Shown piece after piece: positions 1 through 10,448 of a DNA stretch of 10,448 bases; position 1 is the stretch's first letter; every line of letters begins with the position of its first letter. This stretch comes from a virus. The notes under the pieces were generated by a model that saw nothing but the letters and a program-made list of their open reading frames with translations, was not told where the DNA came from and ran no database searches. Location: the UHGV virus genome UHGV-0227753; one strand, written 5' to 3'. The position numbers and the translations under genes were made by a program.

Positions 1-1563
1 ATCTTTCGGTGTTAATGTTATATCCGCAGTCAGTGCTTTCCCGTTAACTTTTCGGTTAGATGGTACCCTGCCATTCGCATTGTCATTCGCTGCTTTAACT
101 GCCTTCGGTGTCGCGGCAAGCGTTTCAGATGTGCTGTTGGTTGCACTACTGAGCTGGACTATCCCCTTTTTCGTCGTGCTCGCATCCTCAAGCGCCACGG
201 CGGATGCAATATCCTCTGCCCGTTTTGCCGCTGTCTCAGCGCGCGTTGCTGCGGATTCTGCCGTACTTTTGCTCTGTGCTGCCGCCGTCGCACTGCCAGC
301 AGCCTCTGTTGCCTTCGTGGATGCCGTCGTGGCGCTGCCCTTCGCTGCTGACGCCTGTCTGGTCGCCTCATCTTTTGAAGCAGACGCCGATGAGGCCGAT
401 GACGCCGCCGAACTGGCGGACGATGCGGCAGCCGTTTTTGAGGATTCTGCGCTGGTTTCCGACGCTTTCGCGTTCGTTTCGGATGTCTTCGCTGCGGAAG
501 CTGACCTCGCTGCTGCGCTGGCCTGTTCAGTGGCTTCGCCAGCCTTCGTTGTGGCTGTTGAAGCGGATGATGCGGCGCTTTCTGCCGATTTTCCGGCGGC
601 GATGGCACTGGCTGAGGCCTGCCCGGCACTTGTTGACGCGGCACTGGCAGACGACGCAGCCGCTGTTTTTGAGCCTGCCGCAGCTGAGGCGCTCTGTCCC
701 GCTGCCGTCTCAGAAGACCTGGCGTTCGTCTCGGACGTTTTTGCCGCCTTCGCGGAATTTGCTGCCGCCGTTGCCGAGGAAGCTGCGCTGCTGGCGCTCG
801 AGGATGCGTTCGTTTCTGATGATTTTGCCGCCTCTTTTGAAGCCGACGCATCCCGGGCTGAGGTGGCAGCTTCTGACGCTTTCGTAGTCGCGGTGGATGC
901 AGAAGTGGCTGCTGATTGTTGTGACGCTGCAGCATTCGTTTCTGACGTTTTCGCGGCACTGGCACTGGTAGCTGCCGCGCTTTTTGAGGACTCTGCAGCG
1001 GCAGCACTTTTTTCCGCTTCAGTGGCCTTTGTTGATGCCGTTCCTGCGCTGGAAGACGCTGACTGAGCCGACGAAGCGGCCTGTCCGGCTGACGTGCTGG
1101 CTGCGCGTGCTGAGCCTGCAGCATCAGTCGCATGGGTTGCCGCCTCACGGGCAGATGTGCCGGCATCGCCGGCTGACTTCTTCGCGGCTGCCGTGTTCTG
1201 TGCCACTGCGGACGCGTTACGCGCCACCTCTTCCACCATCAGTTCAAAACGTCGCAATGCCTCCGGACGGGCATCATCCTCCGTCATGGCACCGAGAAAA
1301 TCATTCAGCGTACCGGGTTGAGAATCTTCATACACGGTGATGGTCCCGGCATGTGACGGCGGGAATCCCTCCACCAACAGAATAACGCTGTACTGACCGT
1401 ACTCAACGTCCATGCTGTAACGCCCGGCTTCATCCGGATTTTCTGAGGCCAGCGTGTTCACCACCACCGTGGTGCTGTTACGTTTTGCTTTCAGCTGGAT
1501 TGTGCAGTTCTGTACCGGTTTTCCTGTGCCGTCTTTCAGTACACCTGAAATCTTTACTGCCAT
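1..1563 (-). CDS. stf: Side tail fiber protein Stf, N-terminal ~521 codons; 3' end continues beyond window position 1
   Basis: Hand translation of the minus strand from ATG at 1563..1561 gives MAVKISGVLKDGTGKPVQNCTIQLKAKRNSTTVVVNTLASENPDEAGRYSMDVEYGQYSVILLVEGFPPSHAGTITVYEDSQPGTLNDFLGAMTEDDARPEALRRFELMVEEVARNASAVAQNTAAAKKSAGDAGTSAREAATHAADAADSARAASTSAGQAASSAQSASS..., matching the lambda Stf N-terminus as I recall it. The same frame (codons at plus positions 3k+1..3k+3) has no stop in the segments I checked (1..360 and 1051..1563), and 121..360 reads ...RQASAAKGSATTASTKATEA...AGSATAAAQSKSTAESAATRAETAAKRAEDIASAVALEDASTTKKGIVQLSSATNSTSETLAATPKAVKAANDNANGRVPSNRKVNGKALTADITLTPKD. It is absent from the ORF track only because its stop lies outside the window. 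Confidence 0.9.
   Translation of the reverse strand, partial: MAVKISGVLKDGTGKPVQNCTIQLKAKRNSTTVVVNTLASENPDEAGRYSMDVEYGQYSVILLVEGFPPSHAGTITVYEDSQPGTLNDFLGAMTEDDARPEALRRFELMVEEVARNASAVAQNTAAAKKSAGDAGTSAREAATHATDAAGSARAASTSAGQAASSAQSASSSAGTASTKATEAEKSAAAAESSKSAAATSASAAKTSETNAAASQQSAATSASTATTKASEAATSARDASASKEAAKSSETNASSSASSAASSATAAANSAKAAKTSETNARSSETAAGQSASAAAGSKTAAASSASAASTSAGQASASAIAAGKSAESAASSASTATTKAGEATEQASAAARSASAAKTSETNAKASETSAESSKTAAASSASSAASSASSASASKDEATRQASAAKGSATTASTKATEAAGSATAAAQSKSTAESAATRAETAAKRAEDIASAVALEDASTTKKGIVQLSSATNSTSETLAATPKAVKAANDNANGRVPSNRKVNGKALTADITLTPKD
240..1200 (-). repeat. Low-complexity Ala/Ser/Thr-rich repeat region inside stf, with imperfect direct DNA repeats
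   Basis: Imperfect direct repeats of the form GCRTTCGTYTCBGAYGTYTTYGC at about 471..495, 723..746 and 932..956 on the plus strand. On the minus strand they encode the recurring Stf peptide motif (KTSETNA-like). High GC and Ala-codon bias leave long open frames in several wrong frames on both strands. Boundaries are approximate. Confidence 0.6.
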
Positions 1564-2296: not shown

Positions 2297-5200
2297 TCAA
2301 CGAATACTGATGCCGGAAGCGGCTTTTTTGGTCACAATCACCGTACAGTCGGTGATATTACCTGCCCACTGATTGCCTTTATGGAAAACCTTAAACTCCA
2401 GAGTGACGCTTCCCCTGCCACTCGGCATATCAATAACCGCACTGTAGCTACCGGGAATGGCCCCTTTAGTTTCTCTGGATGCGATTAATACACCGTTTTT
2501 GCGAACTTCAAAACCATAACCCGTGTATCTTGTACCTCCCGGGTTATTACCACTTCCCGGATCGCTATACGCTATTCCGTTAAAGATAATGGGCGGAATA
2601 ATGATTTGACGGTCAAAGTTATGATCATCGCTGATGGTGACTGTAACCGTCCCGTTTGGTGTTTCCGTGTTACCCCACGTACCAGCCTGTTTCGGAAATG
2701 ATTTGGATACAGCTTTAACGAAGTCACCTCTGACCTGAGTCGCCTCCAGCATGCCCTTAATCGTACAGTTTTCATTTACCGTGACATTGTTGAGCGTCCC
2801 GGCGTTCGCATTCACACTGCCACTGATATCCGCATTTTTAGCGGTCAGCTTTCCGTCTGATGTCAGGGAAAATACCGGAGGACTGCCACCACTGGTAATG
2901 GTGGGAGCCGTCAGGCGCTTCAGGAACACGTCGTTCATGAATATCTGATTGCCCTGCGCCACAAACATCGGCGTTTCATTCCCGTTTGCCGGGTCAATAA
3001 ATGCGATACGGTTAGCGGCAACCAGAAACTGACTCAGTTTGCCTTCCTCCGTGTCCTCCATGCTGAGGCCAATACCCGCGACATAATGTTTGCCGTCTTT
3101 GGTCTGCTCAATTTTGACAGCCCACATGGCATTCCACTTATCGTTGGCGTCCTTCCACTCTTTCGAAAACTCCTCCAGTCTGCTGGCGTTATCCTCCGTC
3201 AGCTCGACTTTTTCCAGCAGCTCCTTGCCGAGATGGGATTCGGTTATCTTGCCTTTGAAAAAATCCAGGTAACCTTCCGCATCATCGCTCGCCCGACCGA
3301 CGGCCTCCACGAATGCCGATTTGCCAACGGTGTTCACACTGCGGATATAAAAGTAATAATCATGGCCCGGTTTGATATTGATACTGGCGGCTATCCAGTA
3401 CAGCGCCGTGCCAAGATAGCGGGCTGTGGTTTCAACCTGCCTGATATCCGCAATCCGCTTTTCCGAGAACCAGAACTCAAACTGTACCGTCGGATCATAA
3501 ACGGCAAGATGCGGCGTTGCGGTTATCTGAAAATAGCCCGGCGTCAGCTCAATCCGCGACGGTGCTGCCGGTGCGGCAATCCGGAACGATACCGATGCCG
3601 GATCGCCCTGCTGCCCCCAGGCATTTGCCGCCCGGACTGTCAGCCTGTAGTTTCCCAGCGCCAGTTGCGTGAAGCGGTATGTGGTTTCCGTCGTCCGGGC
3701 CGTGCTGACCAGCCGCTCACTGCCGTCATCCGCTGTTACGGTCAGACGGAGCAGGAAGCTCACGCCCTTCACCACCTTCGGCGTGTCCCAGCGCGCCAGC
3801 ACCTGATATTCCCCGCTGTCTGCGGTGACTTCGGCGGTCAGGTGCTGCACCGCTGGCGGCGTGACACCATTCACCGTGCCGCTCTGGTCGCCGTCAAAGT
3901 GCGCCCCGTTATCCACGATGGCTTCTTTTTCCGGTACATGCTGCACGGCGGTGATGGCATACGTGCCGTCATCGTTATCACGGATACTCACACAGCGGAA
4001 CAGGCGCTGACGCAACGTCGGCAACTTCAGCCCCCACACACTGTATTCTGCAACGCCGTCAGGAACCCGGTTCACTTTCACCTTAAGTCCGTCGGTGACG
4101 GACTGAACCTCCACGCTGACCGGATTACCACTTCCGTCAACCAGGCTTATCAGCGTGGTACCGGAGGATGGCAGCGTGATTTCACGGTCGAGCGTCAGCG
4201 TCCGGGTCTGGCTGTTTACCGCCAGCACGCGCCCGCCGGTGCGGATACCGGCATAGTCATCATCACAGATTTCAATGACATCGCCCGGTACATGGCGAAG
4301 CCCTTCTGCGCCCACGCTGAAGTCCACGGTCTGCGTTTCCAGCAGTTCTGTTTTAATCAGCCACAGCCCGGCGCGGTGTGCCTGCCCCCGGCTGGTACAG
4401 CCAAAAGCATCCATCTTCGTGACGTTACGACCGTAACGGGCAATGGCCTGCGTGTCCTCCACAAGCTCTGTTGCCGTCTCCCAGCCATTGTCCGGGTCAA
4501 TCCAGTTCACCTCAACGGCATTATGGCGGTCCTTCAGGGCGCTGAAGCTGTAGCGGAACGGCGCGCCATCATCCGGCATCACCACATTACTGCGGTTATA
4601 GGTCCACACCTTATCCGACGGTCGGTCCTGCACGAACGTCAGCGTCTGCCCGTTCCATACCGGCATACAGCGCATCGCCGAGCAGAAATCACTGAGCACA
4701 TCCCACGCCTTGCGCTGCGTGGTCAGCCAGGCATTACAGGTGATGCGCGGCTCCGTGCCGCCAAAGCCGTCCGGCACCGACTGGTCGCAGTACTGGCCGA
4801 TGACATACAGCGCCCATTTATCCACATCCGCCGCACCAAGACGTTTCCCCATGCCGTAGCGCGGATGGGTCAGCATATCCCACAGACACCAGGCCGGGTT
4901 GTTGCTGTATGCCGGTTTTAACGTTCCGTCCCAGATACCGCTGTATTGCCGCGTCTGCGGGTTATAGTTCGACGGCACCTGCAGAATGCGCCCGCGAAGA
5001 TGATAATTACGGCTCACCTGCTGGCTGCCGAACTGCTCCGAGTCCACCTGCACGCCGACCAGTACCGTGTTCGGGTAGCACTGTTTCACATCGATGATTT
5101 CGGTGTATGACGACCAGAGCGTTTTGTTCTGCAGCTGGTCTGTGGTGCTGTCCGGCGTCATCCTGCGCATCCGGATATTAAACGGGCGCGGCGGCAGGTT

Positions 5201-5710
5201 ATCCACCACCACCGAGGCCAGATACTGCGACGTGGTTTTGCCCTTAATGGTGATGTCTTTTTCCGTCACCCAGCCACCGTTACGTTGTATCTGAACCAGC
5301 AGGCGGACTTCCGACGGATTCCGGTCACCCTTTGAGGTGGTTTCCACCAGTGCCTGCACACCGAAGGTAAAGCGCAGACGGTCGATGTTTGCAGACGTGA
5401 TGGTCCGGGTAATCGGCGTGTCGTACTTCACTTCCGTACCCAGCACCGTCTCGGAGCCGGAGGATTCAAATCCCTCCGGCGGTGTCTGCTCCTGCTCACC
5501 TGCCCGGAAAACCACCGTGACACCGGAGATATTGGTATTCCCCTCACTGTCCAGCACTGGCGTACTGTTCAGCAGCACACTTTTTAATCCGTCCACCGGA
5601 CCTTCAATCGGCCCTTCACTGATGGCGTCTATCACGCTCAGCATCTGGGATGATTTCAGGTTGTCCTTCGCTTCGCGCGGGGTATGCCCCTTACTGCTGC
5701 CTTTACCCAT
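2297..5710 (-). CDS. J: Tail tip attachment / host specificity protein J (central tail fiber)
   Basis: 1137-aa ORF starting [54 protein letters not shown]..., collinear with and near-identical to lambda J (1132 aa as recalled) over roughly the first 1000 residues. Position after I and before lom matches lambda. The C-terminal ~100-160 residues do not match the lambda sequence I recall. Confidence 0.97.
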
Positions 5711-5732
5711 TCCTCACGCTCCAGAAACGACA

Positions 5733-5752
5733 AAACCGCCCTGAGGCGGTTT
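5733..5752 (-). promoter_or_regulatory. Stem-loop in the 60-nt I-J intergenic spacer (possible attenuator or RNA stability element)
   Basis: Plus AAACCGCC-CTGA-GGCGGTTT: an 8-bp stem with 4-nt loop. On the minus strand it is followed by a U-rich stretch (TGTCGTTTCTGG) and then the J start region. Function is not established from sequence alone. Confidence 0.25.
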
Positions 5753-5770
5753 CACATAAAACGTTTTTCA

Positions 5771-6442
5771 TCAACGACCAATCACCACAACCTGACCACC
5801 GTCCCCCTCGTCTGCCGTGCTGATCTCCTGAGAAGCCACCCGCGACCCCACGCGCATTTCACCGTACAGAACAGGCAGAACATTGCCCTGGGCAACCATG
5901 TTATCCAGTGAGGAGAAATAGGTGTTCTGCTTACCGTTATCCGTTGTCTGTGTACGGGGAGTTCTAGCTTTCGGTGCCAGCATCTGCGCCACACCACCAA
6001 GTACCATACTGGCACCGAGAGAAAACAGGATACCGGTCATACCACCGGCCCCAATGGCTGCCCCCCATGCTGCAAGGGTGGCTCCGGCAGTAAAGAATGA
6101 TCCGGCAATGGCGGTAGCCCCCAGAACAATCTGGAATACGCCCCCTGACTTGGCCCCGGCGACTCTGGGAACAATATGAATCACAGCGCCGTCAGGCAGA
6201 ACCTCATGTAACTGCGCCGTCAATCCGGACGTGCTGACGTCCCGCCCGGCAATCCGTACCTGATACCAGCCGTCGCTCAGTTTCTGACGAAACGCCGGGA
6301 GCTGTGTGGCCAGCGCCCGGATGGCTTCAGCCCCCGTTTTCACACGAAGGTCGATGCGGCGGCCAAATCGTTGTAAATCCCCGTAAAGGCAGATGCGCGC
6401 CATGCCCGGTGACGCCAGAGGGAGTGTGTGCGTCGCTGCCAT
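5771..6442 (-). CDS. I: Tail tip assembly protein I
   Basis: 223-aa ORF MAATHTLPLASPGMARICLYGDLQRFGRRIDLRVKTGAEAIRALATQL...VVVIGR; length and sequence match lambda I as recalled. Its start overlaps the 3' end of K by 103 nt in a different frame, as in lambda. Confidence 0.95.
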   Translation of the reverse strand: MAATHTLPLASPGMARICLYGDLQRFGRRIDLRVKTGAEAIRALATQLPAFRQKLSDGWYQVRIAGRDVSTSGLTAQLHEVLPDGAVIHIVPRVAGAKSGGVFQIVLGATAIAGSFFTAGATLAAWGAAIGAGGMTGILFSLGASMVLGGVAQMLAPKARTPRTQTTDNGKQNTYFSSLDNMVAQGNVLPVLYGEMRVGSRVASQEISTADEGDGGQVVVIGR

Positions 6443-7083
6443 TTGTCGGTATACCTCTCTCGTTTGCTCAGTTGTTCAGGAATATGGTGCAGCAGCTCGC
6501 CGTCACCACAGTAAATGGCGGCATGATTCGGCACCGATGAACCAAAACAGCACAGCAGCACATCGCCCGGTTGTGCTGATGACAACGGCACCTGATACAG
6601 CCCTGTGGCCTCCAGATTATCCAGATAGAGATTCTGACCGTGACGCCACCAGTCATCCCCGCGATGAAAATCCGGCATCTCAATCCCCGCCAGATGATAA
6701 GCATCCCGGAACAGCGTGTAACAGTCCGTCACCCCGTGCTCAAAGCGCCGCCCGGTAAGATGTGGCACACAGCGGAACTTGTAAATCGCCCCCCGGCAGA
6801 CCAGCCACCACGGCAAATCACTCTGCACCTGCAGCCGCCGATCGGCCTCACTCAGCCAGGGCAGACCACCGGGGTGACTGTGGACCAGCGCCACAATCTC
6901 ACCCTGCATCTCTGCCCGCAGCCAGTCCTCCGGCGACATCCGGAAATACGCCTCCGGCTCACCGGAGATATTCACGCAGGGAAAATATCTTTCCCCCTTC
7001 GGCGTTCTCACCACGAAGCCACACGACTCCGCTGGCGCACATCGCCGGGCGTGCGCCAGAATCGCTGATTCTGTCTCTGTCAT
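6340..7083 (-). CDS. K: Tail tip assembly protein K (MPN/JAB + NlpC/P60 two-domain protein); start ambiguous between 7083 and 6939
   Basis: Stop at 6340. The classical lambda-style start (MSPEDWLRAEMQGEIVALVHSHPGG..., 199 aa) is the ATG at 6939..6937 and has a GGAGG about 11 nt upstream. The frame stays open upstream, and an in-frame ATG at 7083..7081 (MTETESAILAHARRCAPAESCGFVV..., 247 aa) lies 4 nt after the L stop. The HSHPGGLPWLSEAD segment fits the JAMM H-x-H-x7-S-x2-D metalloprotease motif. Confidence 0.9.
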   Translation of the reverse strand: MTETESAILAHARRCAPAESCGFVVRTPKGERYFPCVNISGEPEAYFRMSPEDWLRAEMQGEIVALVHSHPGGLPWLSEADRRLQVQSDLPWWLVCRGAIYKFRCVPHLTGRRFEHGVTDCYTLFRDAYHLAGIEMPDFHRGDDWWRHGQNLYLDNLEATGLYQVPLSSAQPGDVLLCCFGSSVPNHAAIYCGDGELLHHIPEQLSKRERYTDKWQRRTHSLWRHRAWRASAFTGIYNDLAAASTFV

Positions 7084-7087
7084 GGGA

Positions 7088-7786
7088 TTACTGCGAAAGT
7101 TTGTTAATGGAAAGGAAGCCGCCAAAGTTGCCGACATTATTGCGAAACTTACAGCCACTCAGGCATTTACTGCATTTATCTTTCGTGATATCGGACGTCG
7201 GCTGGTCATATTCATCCGCGACAGCCGGACCGCTATAACCGCACTCATCACCGCGATAGGTCCAGGTACAGGTGTTGGCCAGCATGATGCGCCCCGGAAA
7301 AACAGCGCCATCCGTTTCCGTCGGCGTGGACAGTACAAAAGAGGCGCTCACCGCGCTCAGTTCGCTGCACTGCTCGATGCGCCAGCGGCTGATCACCTCC
7401 TGCTCCGGATCGGCATCGCTATTTCCGTTGACGAAGTTCACCGCATCCAGAAAACAGGCGTAAACCTTACGCCTGACCACCGTTCCTCCGACCAGACTCT
7501 GCAGGTCTTCCGCCATCCCGGTGACCATGCCGTGCAGATTAGAGACTTTCAGCGTTGGCCTTGCACTGGCTCCTTTGCCGTTCATCTCAAATCCACTTCC
7601 CTGAATGGGATAGGCCTGATACTGCCGCCCCTGCCAGGTGACTGGTTCACCTTTTTCGTTCTGCTCATTACAGAAGAAATAACGATCTCCGCCGACCTCT
7701 GTCAGATCGATTTCCCAGAGCACCACGCTGGCAGACTGCTCCGCACGGGTGCATTCATTCAGTGTTTCCTGTCGGATATTCTGCAT
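7088..7786 (-). CDS. L: Tail tip assembly protein L
   Basis: 232-aa ORF MQNIRQETLNECTRAEQSASVVLWEIDLTEVGGDRYFFCNEQNEKGEPVTWQGRQYQAYPIQGSGFEMNGKG...SINKLSQ; length and sequence match lambda L as recalled. Cys-rich C-terminal region. Its ATG (7786..7784) overlaps the M stop (TGATG). Confidence 0.95.
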   Translation of the reverse strand: MQNIRQETLNECTRAEQSASVVLWEIDLTEVGGDRYFFCNEQNEKGEPVTWQGRQYQAYPIQGSGFEMNGKGASARPTLKVSNLHGMVTGMAEDLQSLVGGTVVRRKVYACFLDAVNFVNGNSDADPEQEVISRWRIEQCSELSAVSASFVLSTPTETDGAVFPGRIMLANTCTWTYRGDECGYSGPAVADEYDQPTSDITKDKCSKCLSGCKFRNNVGNFGGFLSINKLSQ

Positions 7787-8115
7787 CAGTTCACCACCTG
7801 TTCAAACTCTGCGCTGAACTCAACACGCAACATACTGACCCGCGACGACCATTTTGCGCAGGTCACCTTTATCTGCCGGTAGCCATAAGGCGGCGTCCAC
7901 AGAAAGGCCTTCCAGCCCCCGTGCTCAGCCAGAAACGATTCCAGTGCCGTGGCCTCCTCGCGGGGAACAGAAAGCGTCACGCTGTACGTTTTCAGGTCAG
8001 CGTTCAGCCCGGCAGGCGCACGCTGAGAATAGCCATCACCAAAGCGCACCTTTATTACGGAAGGGGCCGAAGCCACATCCATACCGGGTTTCACTTTCCA
8101 GCGGAAGGTTTTCAT
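7786..8115 (-). CDS. M: Tail tip assembly protein M
   Basis: 109-aa ORF MKTFRWKVKPGMDVASAPSVIKVRFGDGYSQRAPAGLNADLKTYSVTLSVPREEAT...EFEQVVN, matching lambda M (109 aa) as recalled. A strong GGAGGTGG Shine-Dalgarno lies just upstream. Its start overlaps the H stop in an ATGA arrangement. Confidence 0.95.
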   Translation of the reverse strand: MKTFRWKVKPGMDVASAPSVIKVRFGDGYSQRAPAGLNADLKTYSVTLSVPREEATALESFLAEHGGWKAFLWTPPYGYRQIKVTCAKWSSRVSMLRVEFSAEFEQVVN

Positions 8116-10448
8116 CGTCCACCTCCGGAGAACAGACCACCATCACGGGACTGCTGTTGCATAAAGTCCGCTGCTGCTTTTTTCCCGAGGTCATAAACCA
8201 CCTTCAGGGCAGCCGGACCTATCTGCCCGTTCGTGCCATCGTTATTGATCTCGATGTTGTACTGCGGGGCAAACATCGCCATACCTGAACCACCAATATC
8301 CGCCACAACCCCCAGCTTACCGTCAGCACCACGACGCAGAGGCAGAATGGCTTCAGGCCCAGCTTCCCCCATCACACCTGCACCTTTTGCAAAAGCAAAA
8401 AACGTCGGACGGTTAACCACCGTGCCACTGTAGCGACTCAAATCAGCAGACTGATAAACACCACCATCAGCATTGGGCGTCACACTGGCAGTTGCTGCAC
8501 TCCCCCAGCCAAACGCCGAACCAATCCCCTTAACTGCCTGCATCATGGACATCTGAGCCATGATTTTTGCCAGATCAGAAAGGAGCGAGGCGGTAAAAGA
8601 TTTGAAGTTCAGTTTTCCGGTGGTACAGAATGTAGCCAGTGCATTACCTGCACTATTAAATGCCGCTGTAAGCATCTGCTCCGCAGTGCCTGCCGCATTA
8701 TCCGCATCTGCCGTGAAATTCTGAAACGCCCGCATGGCACCGTTTTTCCAGTTACCCTGAGCAATTTCAAGCTGTTGCCAGTAACGGCGATTCTCATTCA
8801 GTTGCCTGTTCAGGCTCTCCGTCAGCGCCTGCTCGGCCTTTCTGTAGTCATCCGTGTTATATGTCCCTTTCTGCTCACTATCCCGCCTCAACTGCTCCAG
8901 CTGTTGCTGGTATTTCTGGCGAAGGCTCAGTTGTACCTGATATCGCTGCCGCTGCTGATCACCCATACCCACCGTGGCGATATCCAGGTCATGTTGCTGA
9001 CGCTGAGCGCGCTCTTCTTCAGCCAGTTGACTGGTCAGCTGAATTGTTTTTTTCTTCAGATCGTTGAGTGCCGTCTGTTTCTGAAGCTCCTGCTGTTTTA
9101 CATCCAGCAGCGTCAGTGCCTGAATCAGTTCATCTTTACGGGCCAGCACACTCTTTTCATCTGCCGTCAGTTTTTTCCCGTCCAGGTCGCTGATGCGCTG
9201 CTGCAGAGCCAGAAGCTGTTTATGCGCTTCTGTCATCCTGTCAGTGGCAATGCCTGCTGACTGTCTGGCAGCAGCAATCTGTCCTTCCACCTGTGCCTGT
9301 TGCTGGCTGTACTGCAGCAATAACCGGGTGGCCTCATCATTACGGGTTTCGCGTGTTTTTTTCTTACCGGATGCCAGGGCTTTCTCGTAACGTTCATTTT
9401 CACGTTGTATCGCCGCATCCCTGACAGCCTGATCGGCGTACTGCATGGCATTAATACGCGCAATTTCACGCTGATGTCGTGCTGCTTCCGTTTCATTCAT
9501 CCGGTTCAGTGCAGCATTTTCAGCATTACGGCGTTTCTGTTGCTCCTGATAATTCCGCTCTGCCTGCTCTTTTGCATCCTGCAAATCCTTCTGGCGTTTT
9601 TTCTCCTGAAGCTCGTTAAGACGCTGCTGATCGTATTCAACCTGAGAAGATGATGCCGTCCAGGGGAGTCTTTTCGCCCGCGATACTTTCTCCTGCAAAG
9701 TGGCAATCTGCGCATCCAGCGAATCTTCACGACCAATATTCATGGCCGCATCCCAGAACTGCTTCCACCAGTCAGACAAGGTTTGCAGCGTACTACCCAG
9801 CGCATTGAGGTTATTATCAATATCCGCAGTACGCCGACCGGTTTCCTCTGCCAGTGCAGACATGGCTATCCGTGCCGCATCACTGGACCGCCCCTGCTCT
9901 CCAAGGATGCGTATCTGCTCAAGCTGAGTGGCAGTAAGAAAATGCAGCTCATTGTCCAGAGCCTTCGCGGCATTTACAGGATCATCCTTCAGCCGCTTAA
10001 ACTGATTTATGGTATCGCTGATCGACTGGCCAACCGATCGCTCCATCTGTGCGGCAGCTCTCGCCACCATACCGATATCGTTTCCACGAAATGCACCACT
10101 CCCCACCACCTGAGCCAGCGCACCGGCTGCAGCATGTTGCGTGATACCATTCCCGGAAATAGCACGACTGAGCGTCCACAGCTGCCCGGCAGTGACTCCG
10201 GCATAATGCCCCGTCAGCGACAGCTGGCGGTTAAATTCTTCCCCCTCCTTCTGACCGTCATACCAGGCTTTACCCAGACCATAGACGGCCGCGGTAATAC
10301 CGCCAATAACCCCGCCCAGCATCATGCCTTTCGGTGACATCAGTGTGTCTATCCATCCGGCACGGTTAGCCAGCGTTATCCCGGATCCCCTCAGCGCCCC
10401 TAAATTGCCGCGGGCCAGTTCACCTATCAGAACGCCTATCTCCTGGCG
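8112..10448 (-). CDS. H: Tail tape measure protein H, C-terminal ~778 codons; 5' end lies beyond the window end
   Basis: The frame is open from the window edge (10448) to the stop at 8112..8114; I checked 10341..10448 by hand and found no stop. The track start at 10340 is an internal Met. The C-terminus ...NNDGTNGQIGPAALKVVYDLGKKAAADFMQQQSRDGGLFSGGGR matches the lambda H C-terminus as recalled. The body is a long Q/E/R/K-rich predicted coiled-coil typical of tape-measure proteins. Position immediately upstream of M matches lambda. Confidence 0.93.
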   Translation of the reverse strand, partial: RQEIGVLIGELARGNLGALRGSGITLANRAGWIDTLMSPKGMMLGGVIGGITAAVYGLGKAWYDGQKEGEEFNRQLSLTGHYAGVTAGQLWTLSRAISGNGITQHAAAGALAQVVGSGAFRGNDIGMVARAAAQMERSVGQSISDTINQFKRLKDDPVNAAKALDNELHFLTATQLEQIRILGEQGRSSDAARIAMSALAEETGRRTADIDNNLNALGSTLQTLSDWWKQFWDAAMNIGREDSLDAQIATLQEKVSRAKRLPWTASSSQVEYDQQRLNELQEKKRQKDLQDAKEQAERNYQEQQKRRNAENAALNRMNETEAARHQREIARINAMQYADQAVRDAAIQRENERYEKALASGKKKTRETRNDEATRLLLQYSQQQAQVEGQIAAARQSAGIATDRMTEAHKQLLALQQRISDLDGKKLTADEKSVLARKDELIQALTLLDVKQQELQKQTALNDLKKKTIQLTSQLAEEERAQRQQHDLDIATVGMGDQQRQRYQVQLSLRQKYQQQLEQLRRDSEQKGTYNTDDYRKAEQALTESLNRQLNENRRYWQQLEIAQGNWKNGAMRAFQNFTADADNAAGTAEQMLTAAFNSAGNALATFCTTGKLNFKSFTASLLSDLAKIMAQMSMMQAVKGIGSAFGWGSAATASVTPNADGGVYQSADLSRYSGTVVNRPTFFAFAKGAGVMGEAGPEAILPLRRGADGKLGVVADIGGSGMAMFAPQYNIEINNDGTNGQIGPAALKVVYDLGKKAAADFMQQQSRDGGLFSGGGR

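Follow-up and report, generated by a model that had tools for sequence, protein, structure and literature searches.

The 10,448-nucleotide (nt) stretch of virus genome UHGV-0227753 analyzed here (hereafter the window) carries the 3′ part of a tail tape measure gene, H (8112–10448, minus strand), whose affinity changes from one phage lineage to another just before the gene ends. The explanation we favor, to which as a whole we assign a probability of roughly 0.85, is that this is an H of the mEp460/cdtI type from an Escherichia coli lambdoid prophage, that it would have been joined to a lambda-type gene M by a crossover within a 17-nt shared stretch, and that an older patch exchange would have touched the same end of the gene. 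Specifically, homologous crossover in those 17 nt, common to both lineages, would join a non-lambda tail-shaft module to a lambda-type tail tip (M-L-K-I-J). The second, older and smaller exchange would account for a 60-nt patch at 8191–8250, and a 43-nt island native to the mEp460 lineage lies between the two. All features described below are on the minus strand unless the plus strand is named, and coordinates taken from the reverse complement (wrc) convert as window position = 10449 − wrc.

Identity to Lambda Across H and the Tip Genes

Nucleotide similarity to lambda (reference NC_001416; blastn, word size 11) starts abruptly within H. No similarity was found for window 8251–10448, while one 5512-nt alignment at 94.4% identity covers 2741–8250, beginning 139 nt ahead of the H stop and reaching into J; H is not uniformly close to lambda, nor are M to I uniformly distant from it. 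At the protein level H is homologous to lambda gpH (NP_040595.1, 853 amino acids [aa]; blastp E 1e-50; phmmer E 3e-45 to PDB 8IYK chain H), with window residues 43–778 collinear with lambda gpH 110–853 and the last 11 residues identical. Yet the H body shares only 171/690 residues with lambda gpH (24.8% aa identity), as against 35/46 (76%) in the last 46 residues. The original prediction, made from the letters of this DNA alone, had described H as homologous to lambda H but substantially different from it, and in this it was right. It had also described the last ~45 residues as closely matching lambda, which is true of 35 of the 46 but passes over a 14-residue island (8148–8190) in which 26/43 nt differ.

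Downstream of H the window is lambda-type. M matches lambda at 101/109 aa (92.7%) and 309/330 nt (93.6%), L at 95.3% aa and 92.3% nt, K at 96.5% aa over the 199 aa annotated in lambda, and I at 98.2% aa and 96.6% nt. The description of M, L, K and I as near-identical to lambda is thus correct as to type (93–98% aa) but overstated at the nucleotide level (92–97%).

Fine Structure of the H 3′ End

Across eight genomes we aligned the 3′-terminal 330 nt of H together with the 120 nt that follow its stop (within M), and five segments can be told apart. Segment A (8251–10448), the H body, belongs to the mEp460/cdtI lineage: across its last 190 nt, it differs from lambda at 117/200 nt and from mEp460 at 5/191. 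Segment B (8191–8250) is a 60-nt patch, EINNDGTNGQIGPAALKVVY, that differs from lambda and PhiR26_1 at 6/60 nt and from mEp460 at 0/60; the differences rise to 12/60 in Fels-1 and to 20–22/60 in the lambda-type H of PhiR29_1, phage 21, and mEp332. Segment C (8148–8190) is a 43-nt island, native to mEp460 and Fels-1, that codes for LGKKAAADFMQQQS here where lambda has MARKGARDEIQTQM. It differs at 26/43 nt from all lambda-type alleles (lambda, PhiR29_1, phage 21), but at only 2/43 from mEp460 and 12/43 from Fels-1, and its contrast with the flanks is strong (Fisher test, p = 2e-14). Segment D (8131–8147) comprises the 17 nt CGTGATGGTGGTCTGTT, coding for RDGGL, with one difference from lambda (1/17) and one from mEp460 (1/17), and is the putative crossover zone. 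Segment E (8130 and below) reverses the affinity of the H body, with 8/139 nt differing from lambda and 61/142 from mEp460.

The same structure is legible in the proteins. The window protein ends ...EINNDGTNGQIGPAALKVVYD LGKKAAADFMQQQS RDGGLFSGGGR and lambda gpH ends ...VINNDGTNGQIGPAALKAVYD MARKGARDEIQTQM RDGGLFSGGGR, whereas the native ends of the other lineage are ...RDGGRLSGAYR (mEp460) and ...RDGGRLSGAYS (Fels-1). In maximum chi-square analysis the strongest breakpoint falls at window 8250 in the comparison with lambda (chi2 91; reached in 0/1000 permutations, the highest of which gave 16) and at window 8134 in that with mEp460 (chi2 124; reached in 0/1000 permutations). The identity steps against the two phages are opposite in direction and complementary across 8131–8147, and such abrupt, statistically supported, opposed steps bear out the earlier suggestion of lambdoid mosaicism. 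We considered whether the 69% identity to lambda at 8149–8248 in the MAFFT alignment was alignment noise and rejected this, as the ungapped view resolves it into a near-identical patch and a diverged island. The “lambda-like” C-terminus of H is, as read from these alignments, a composite: a shared 60-nt patch, a lineage-native 43-nt island, and a lambda-type end from 8147 down.

The position of the H/M joint follows from how far each type tracks the window. The mEp460 sequence tracks it to 8135 and below 8131 retains just ~57% identity; for lambda-type sequences, an unbroken match begins only at 8147 and runs downward. Within this interval an mEp460-type T is kept at 8136, and the sequence is lambda-type from 8134 downward. 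We infer that the crossover joining mEp460-type H to lambda-type M took place within 8131–8147, 8–12 codons before the H stop. The original prediction had anticipated a breakpoint close to the H/M boundary, within the 3′ part of H; there is a junction there, but in the last 8–12 codons rather than ~45 codons from the stop. The lambda-type part of the window downstream thereby includes the last eight H codons, the Shine-Dalgarno sequence, and the M start. The M translation-initiation region occupies 8113–8126, with GGAGG at 8122–8126 and an M ATG (8113–8115) that overlaps the H stop (ATGA), and a ribosome-binding site is annotated at the equivalent place in phage 21. Because the crossover would lie just upstream of the Shine-Dalgarno sequence and start codon, M would keep its own translation signals.

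A simpler account would place a single breakpoint ~45 codons before the H stop and treat everything downstream as one contiguous lambda-derived block. Both blastn and the maximum chi-square test do start lambda similarity at 8250, and identity to lambda rises from 25% in the body to 76% in the last 46 residues. However, the block so defined is interrupted by the island at 8148–8190, whose 26/43 differences from lambda-type alleles stand against 2/43 from mEp460 and 12/43 from Fels-1. Further, over 8191–8250 the window does not differ from mEp460, whose M is not lambda-type, and the patch is missing from phage 21 and PhiR29_1, both close to lambda (20/60 differ). We therefore consider a single contiguous block unlikely.

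Comparison with mEp460 itself supports two separate events. It has segments B and C as in the window, but its own M: window M shares only 55–62% nt identity with mEp460 M, which is closer to Gifsy-1 M, and mEp460 turns lambda-like only near the M/L boundary, so that its junction to the lambda-type tip stands one gene further down. Since segment B is present in mEp460 too, patch B would predate the H/M crossover and be independent of it.

The distribution of segment B among lambda-type alleles suggests a separate small patch exchange. Identity in this segment is 54/60 nt with lambda but 40/60 with the lambda relatives phage 21 and PhiR29_1, and phage 21, PhiR29_1, mEp332, and Stx2_95 carry IQNDG(T/I)NG(LP/QA)GPQ(M/L)(L/M)K in its place. 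The H genes of lambda and phage 21 are otherwise 98–99% identical, save for one 112-nt patch with 47 mismatches (H nt 2356–2467, wrc 2131–2242) that adjoins the upstream side of the gpI-docking helix, and in the 3′ part of that patch (wrc 2199–2242) lambda is similar to the mEp460 type. It is more economical to suppose that the transfer possibly went from an mEp460-type gene into a subset of lambda-type alleles, lambda included.

Lineage and Length of H

The H of the window is a common allele that already carries annotation in prophages, and it aligns with high identity and in full collinearity to a set of known tape measures. It shares 98.9% nt and, over all 778 residues, 98.3% aa identity with H of vB_EcoS-813R6 (URC10439.1, 1024 aa) and 96.8% nt and, again over all 778 residues, 97.4% aa identity with H of phi458 (UYE91770.1, 1024 aa), while mEp460, cdtI, Ayreon, Tritos, and relatives stand at ~93.5% nt as far as window 8131 (mEp460 H, YP_007112087.1, 1021 aa: 92.0% aa). 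Most 100-nt windows of the H body share 93–100% nt identity with mEp460, phi458, and 813R6. A protein search for the donor lineage, as the original prediction had recommended, thus leads to the mEp460/cdtI type (813R6, phi458, mEp460). By the measure of collinear, high-identity alignment (92–98% aa, 93–99% nt), window H is a member of this type, and it falls outside the strict lambda H allele group (853 aa; lambda, phage 21, PhiR29_1; 96–99% aa identity within the group), to which it is only 25% identical. It nonetheless lacks the lineage-native mEp460/cdtI end (RDGGRLSGAY-R/S) and the non-lambda M linked to that end. On its alignments, then, window H is a recombinant subtype of the mEp460/cdtI tape measure, common to 813R6, phi458, and the CE10 prophage: all three share with the window the H/M junction, the lambda-type M, and the RDGGLFSGGGR end. 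They differ from the window elsewhere, 813R6 in a diverged central gpI, phi458 in the C-terminal region of J, and CE10 in an extra 339-nt hypothetical open reading frame (ORF) between I and J (prophage 13721–14059) that is absent from the window.

Two Salmonella prophage tape measures, those of Gifsy-1 (1031 aa) and Fels-1 (1053 aa), belong to the same deep lineage at 61–65% aa identity over their full length, with segments B and C present in Fels-1 in lineage-native form. They differ from window H in host genus, in greater divergence, and in having their own M alleles and C-terminal ends. The ungapped nucleotide comparison with Gifsy-1, which an indel shifts out of register, was set aside. 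Within its own lineage H is also patchy: identity to 813R6, phi458, and mEp460 is down to 86% in window 9749–9848, and over 8449–8748 mEp460 drops to 54–70% while 813R6 stays at 100%.

The window holds the 3′ 2337 nt of H, about three quarters of the gene, comprising 778 codons and a stop (TGA at 8112–8114). A codon-by-codon read of 10341–10448 meets no stop before the window edge; the 5′ end therefore lies beyond it, and the total length of H cannot be read from the window, as had been stated previously. An ORF call of 742 aa would start H at ATG 10340; we rejected this start because 10341–10448 is stop-free and homologues align from residue 247, which together mark that ATG as internal. In blastp, window H aligns from residue 247 through the C-terminus of the 813R6, phi458, and mEp460 proteins, and so corresponds to residues 247–1024 of a 1024-aa mEp460/cdtI-type tape measure. 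The CE10 prophage H (WP_000372004.1) is likewise 3075 nt and 1024 aa long, and from relatives with 98–100% identity a full length of 1024 aa is likely. The mEp460/cdtI-type H is ~171 aa longer than lambda gpH. The domains TMP_2, TMP_4, and Tape_meas_lam_C follow one another as they do in lambda, with a shift of ~175–185 residues, which places the extra length relative to lambda's 853 aa N-terminal to TMP_2 and outside the window.

These domains lie at 9909–10388 (TMP_2, PF06791; residues 21–180 in the numbering of partial H; E 6.8e-47, 160.3 bits, cut-off 30.2), 9108–9341 (TMP_4, PF24622; residues 370–447; E 1.1e-16; including KSVLARKDELIQ), and, C-terminal to TMP_2, 8532–8756 (Tape_meas_lam_C, PF09718; residues 565–639; E 7.8e-25, 87.2 bits, cut-off 23). 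The TMP_2 match in the window covers profile positions 54–208 only, the rest being cut off by the window edge, and is complete in the 813R6 homologue (residues 228–426). The motif KSVLARKDELIQ at residue 432 of partial H has its lambda counterpart, EKSLLAHKDE, at residue 525. With TMP_2 and Tape_meas_lam_C both above gathering score, H fits the architecture of lambda-family tail tape measures, and its position is as expected, with M next (ATGA overlap) and with the chaperone genes G and T, which fall outside the window, preceding H in the CE10 prophage and 813R6. Lambda gpH (PDB 8IYK, 8K35, 9E7M) has the same order of TMP_2 and Tape_meas_lam_C and a conserved tip-docking helix. In lambda, gpH sets tail length, is cut to H* and HC, and is ejected to form a channel (PMC12617516); by homology, window H would be expected to do likewise in tail-length control, cleavage to H* and HC, and ejection as a channel. 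If tail length scales with the tape measure, a tail proportionally longer than that of lambda would result, with ~38 tube rings against 32.

The original prediction had called H a diverged allele, but H is not alone in this. Where relatives extend over the full gene block, all the shaft genes ahead of H have likewise departed from lambda (33–54% aa identity); in the CE10 prophage the values are 50% (Z), 53% (U), 54% (V), 33% (G), and 38% (T), and the head genes there are of another type, with a ClpP-protease/capsid fusion. Judged by these relatives, H is the last gene of a distinct, non-lambda head and tail-shaft module, rather than a lone diverged allele.

The Putative Tip-Docking End of H

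The C-terminal ~45 residues are the only part of H that is well conserved between both tape measure lineages. A motif, I-(N/Q)-ND-x-x-NG-x-x-GP-x-x-(L/M)-(K/Q)-x-VY...RDGG, is found in lambda, phage 21, Stx2_95, mEp460, Gifsy-1, and Fels-1. Residues 743–774 of window H (8127–8222) are the equivalent of lambda gpH 818–849 (phmmer to PDB 9e7m chain Ha, a 32-residue fragment, E 1.3e-6), and the alignment of H to 8iyk_H ends at residue 853. Docking-helix positions identical to lambda number 18/32, and the second half of the helix differs over a 14-residue stretch (lambda 829–842). In lambda, gpH 818–842/849 forms a three-helix coiled coil on the gpI trimer (residues 134–222) in the tip lumen, and this helix belongs to gpHC, the C-terminal fragment that remains after cleavage of gpH to gpH* (PMC10721106, PMC12617516). 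Because gpI in the window is 98.2% identical to that of lambda, docking of the H C-terminus on gpI is plausible in the window phage also.

Such conservation could suggest that no recombination took place inside H, and that purifying selection on the tip-docking end produced the similarity, with the modules meeting simply where gene H gives way to gene M. The C-terminal motif is indeed present in six phages of both lineages despite 25% body identity, and the same residues are those ordered on gpI in the lambda structures. Selection on the protein, however, fits the nucleotide pattern poorly. Segment B is closer to lambda (54/60) than to Fels-1 (48/60) and far closer than to the phage 21 type (40/60), 4/6 of its differences from lambda are synonymous, and most third positions agree. 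In its last eight codons H is lambda-type (LFSGGGR) where the lineage-native end is RLSGAY(R/S), and the boundaries are abrupt and statistically supported. Selection without recombination is accordingly improbable, and we grant it little weight.

We favor instead a role for the docking end in the recombination itself. The conserved docking element would provide a short nucleotide identity between otherwise unalignable genes, homology-dependent recombination would act there, and the recombinants would retain a working shaft and a working tip. Crossovers would cluster at the H 3′ end because the C-terminal ~45 residues are conserved in both lineages. Phage Rad52-type recombinases, which tolerate sequence divergence, could be one agent of this; Red/Rad52-type recombination between diverged sequences is reportedly the subject of Martinsohn et al. 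in 2008 and De Paepe et al. in 2014.

Several observations weigh against this explanation or parts of it. The crossover positions given above are bounded only by the alleles sampled. Part of the C-terminal similarity needs no recombination, as the motif is conserved in Fels-1, Gifsy-1, Stx2_95, and phage 21. The explanation of the junction's placement by docking is weakened on two counts: mEp460 has its shaft/tip junction at M/L and not in H, and 813R6 combines this H C-terminus with a gpI that is diverged in its center (41–61% nt), so that the H end, M, and I are not tightly co-inherited. We also rejected strict co-adaptation of the H C-terminal island with gpI, as the same island occurs with lambda-type gpI (window, phi458) and with diverged gpI (813R6, mEp460).

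A broader idea, which we put forward as tentative and on balance doubtful, is that the last ~140 nt of lambdoid H may serve as a recombination hotspot or homology linker through which shaft modules of only ~25% protein identity are swapped, with lambda itself carrying a 45–60-nt mEp460-type patch in the gpHC helix. At least four recurrent breakpoints within 120 nt (window 8250, 8154, 8147, 8131) would fit, though these are breakpoint classes read from BLAST tables, a limit that weighs on the idea as well. It would also fit that most of what separates lambda H from phage 21 H lies in the 112-nt diverged patch.

Recurrence and Viability of the Junction

The junction is not peculiar to the window. 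A 401-nt query spanning it is covered to at least 80% in 90/5426 complete E. coli genomes and in four phage records, and matches to this query form a few classes, starting at wrc 2199, 2295, or 2302 or ending at wrc 2318 (window 8250, 8154, 8147, and 8131, respectively). A 2749-nt stretch that runs from the H body across the junction and M into L is present at 100% in several closed E. coli genomes (4/1-1 and others); the CE10 prophage is essentially identical over it (100.0% reported), and 1813/5426 complete E. coli genomes hold a place covering at least 80% of it. The parental arrangements are likewise found, mEp460-type H with its own M in 14 phage records and lambda-type H with lambda-type M in many phages, so that both parents and the recombinant all occur independently in nature. 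Phage phi458, which carries the H/M junction of the window, is a spontaneously induced, plaque-forming siphovirus (PMC9701743). A literature search found nothing specific on this H/M junction or on tail lengths of mEp460-type phages, the phi458 paper giving morphology only.

The junction might be imagined to be a chimera of two co-resident prophages, produced in assembly or sequencing, given that E. coli genomes hold a median of 2 and up to 7 places matching the 2749-nt query and that the full 10.4-kb window has no 100% match among complete E. coli genomes (best 98.6%, in 3 pieces), but because the junction recurs in 90 complete genomes and four phage records including plaque-forming phi458, the 2749-nt stretch is matched at 100% in closed genomes (4/1-1, CE10, others), and the reading frames are intact, an artefact is very unlikely and receives virtually no weight from us.

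Neighboring Genes and Other Mosaic Joints

The large genes of the window are all on the minus strand, in lambda tail order, and every reading frame is intact. M, the distal tail protein gene (7786–8115), is lambda-type (Pfam Phage_min_tail, E 2e-38) and the first gene of the tip block M-L-K-I-J; from the ORF listing it is followed by L (7088–7786), K (6340–7083, in a 247-aa form), I (5771–6442), J (2297–5710), lom (1628–2227), and the start of a side-tail-fibre gene below ~1560. Among other features sought, plus-strand ORFs at 8775–9260 and 9783–10337 and a minus-strand ORF at 9233–9496 have no Pfam match, no Rfam family matches at gathering score in 8000–10448, and TRF finds no tandem repeats in that same interval.

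The K of the window, intact at 247 aa, begins MTETESAILAHA. Near window 6949, in the L/K region (6900–7110), the lambda reference has one G fewer than the window and mEp460 (GGAGGC-TATTTCC), and this breaks the 247-aa K frame (starting 5 nt after L) and leaves the annotated 199-aa K. In I, window 5949–6248 (the center of the gene, gpI ~65–165) is lambda-like here and in phi458 (91–98%) and diverged in mEp460 and 813R6 (41–68%); this is part of the gpI domain that holds the tape measure C-terminus in lambda.

Further along, lambda nucleotide similarity ends abruptly at window 2741, in J. The C-terminal ~150 residues of J, its receptor-binding end (2297–2741), are non-lambda and 91–96% identical to mEp460, and phi458 departs from the window in J at ~2949–3248 (57–66% identity). 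Lom is only 46.5% identical to lambda Lom, and lambda nucleotide similarity (87%) is back at window 1755, at the 3′ end of lom, from where it continues into the side-tail-fibre N-terminus (655–1755); the 3′ end of lom is thus another intragenic mosaic junction. At window 80–1340 (plus strand), long Ala/Arg-rich ORFs (328, 335, and 227 aa), which overlap one another in several frames and on both strands, lie over the GC-rich start of the minus-strand side-tail-fibre gene and look like by-products of repetitive, GC-rich coding rather than genes.

Significance for Lambdoid Tail Modules

Lambdoid phage mosaicism is pervasive, with modular exchange at gene or domain boundaries. Juhala et al. reportedly described it for HK97 and HK022 in 2000, and Clark et al. 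are said to have treated linker sequences in lambdoid modular exchange in 2001. The H/M junction is ordinary lambdoid mosaicism, of a kind already known: it has the same abrupt passage from unalignable to >90% identical DNA, at or near gene boundaries, and the same short runs of common sequence where the parts join. There is no difference in kind, the extra detail being several joints within the last 140 nt of H.

The finding accordingly has little significance beyond correct annotation. The gene should be labeled an mEp460/cdtI-type tape measure of ~1024 aa, rather than a variant of lambda H, and the boundary between shaft and tip modules belongs at window 8131–8147. The longer tape measure also predicts a tail ~20% longer than that of lambda. 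Were the tentative hotspot idea to hold, this would become a structure-anchored case of protein docking elements doubling as DNA homology linkers in temperate phages, and the gpHC helix would be a natural splice point for chimeric siphovirus tails that combine the shaft length of one phage with the tip host range of another.

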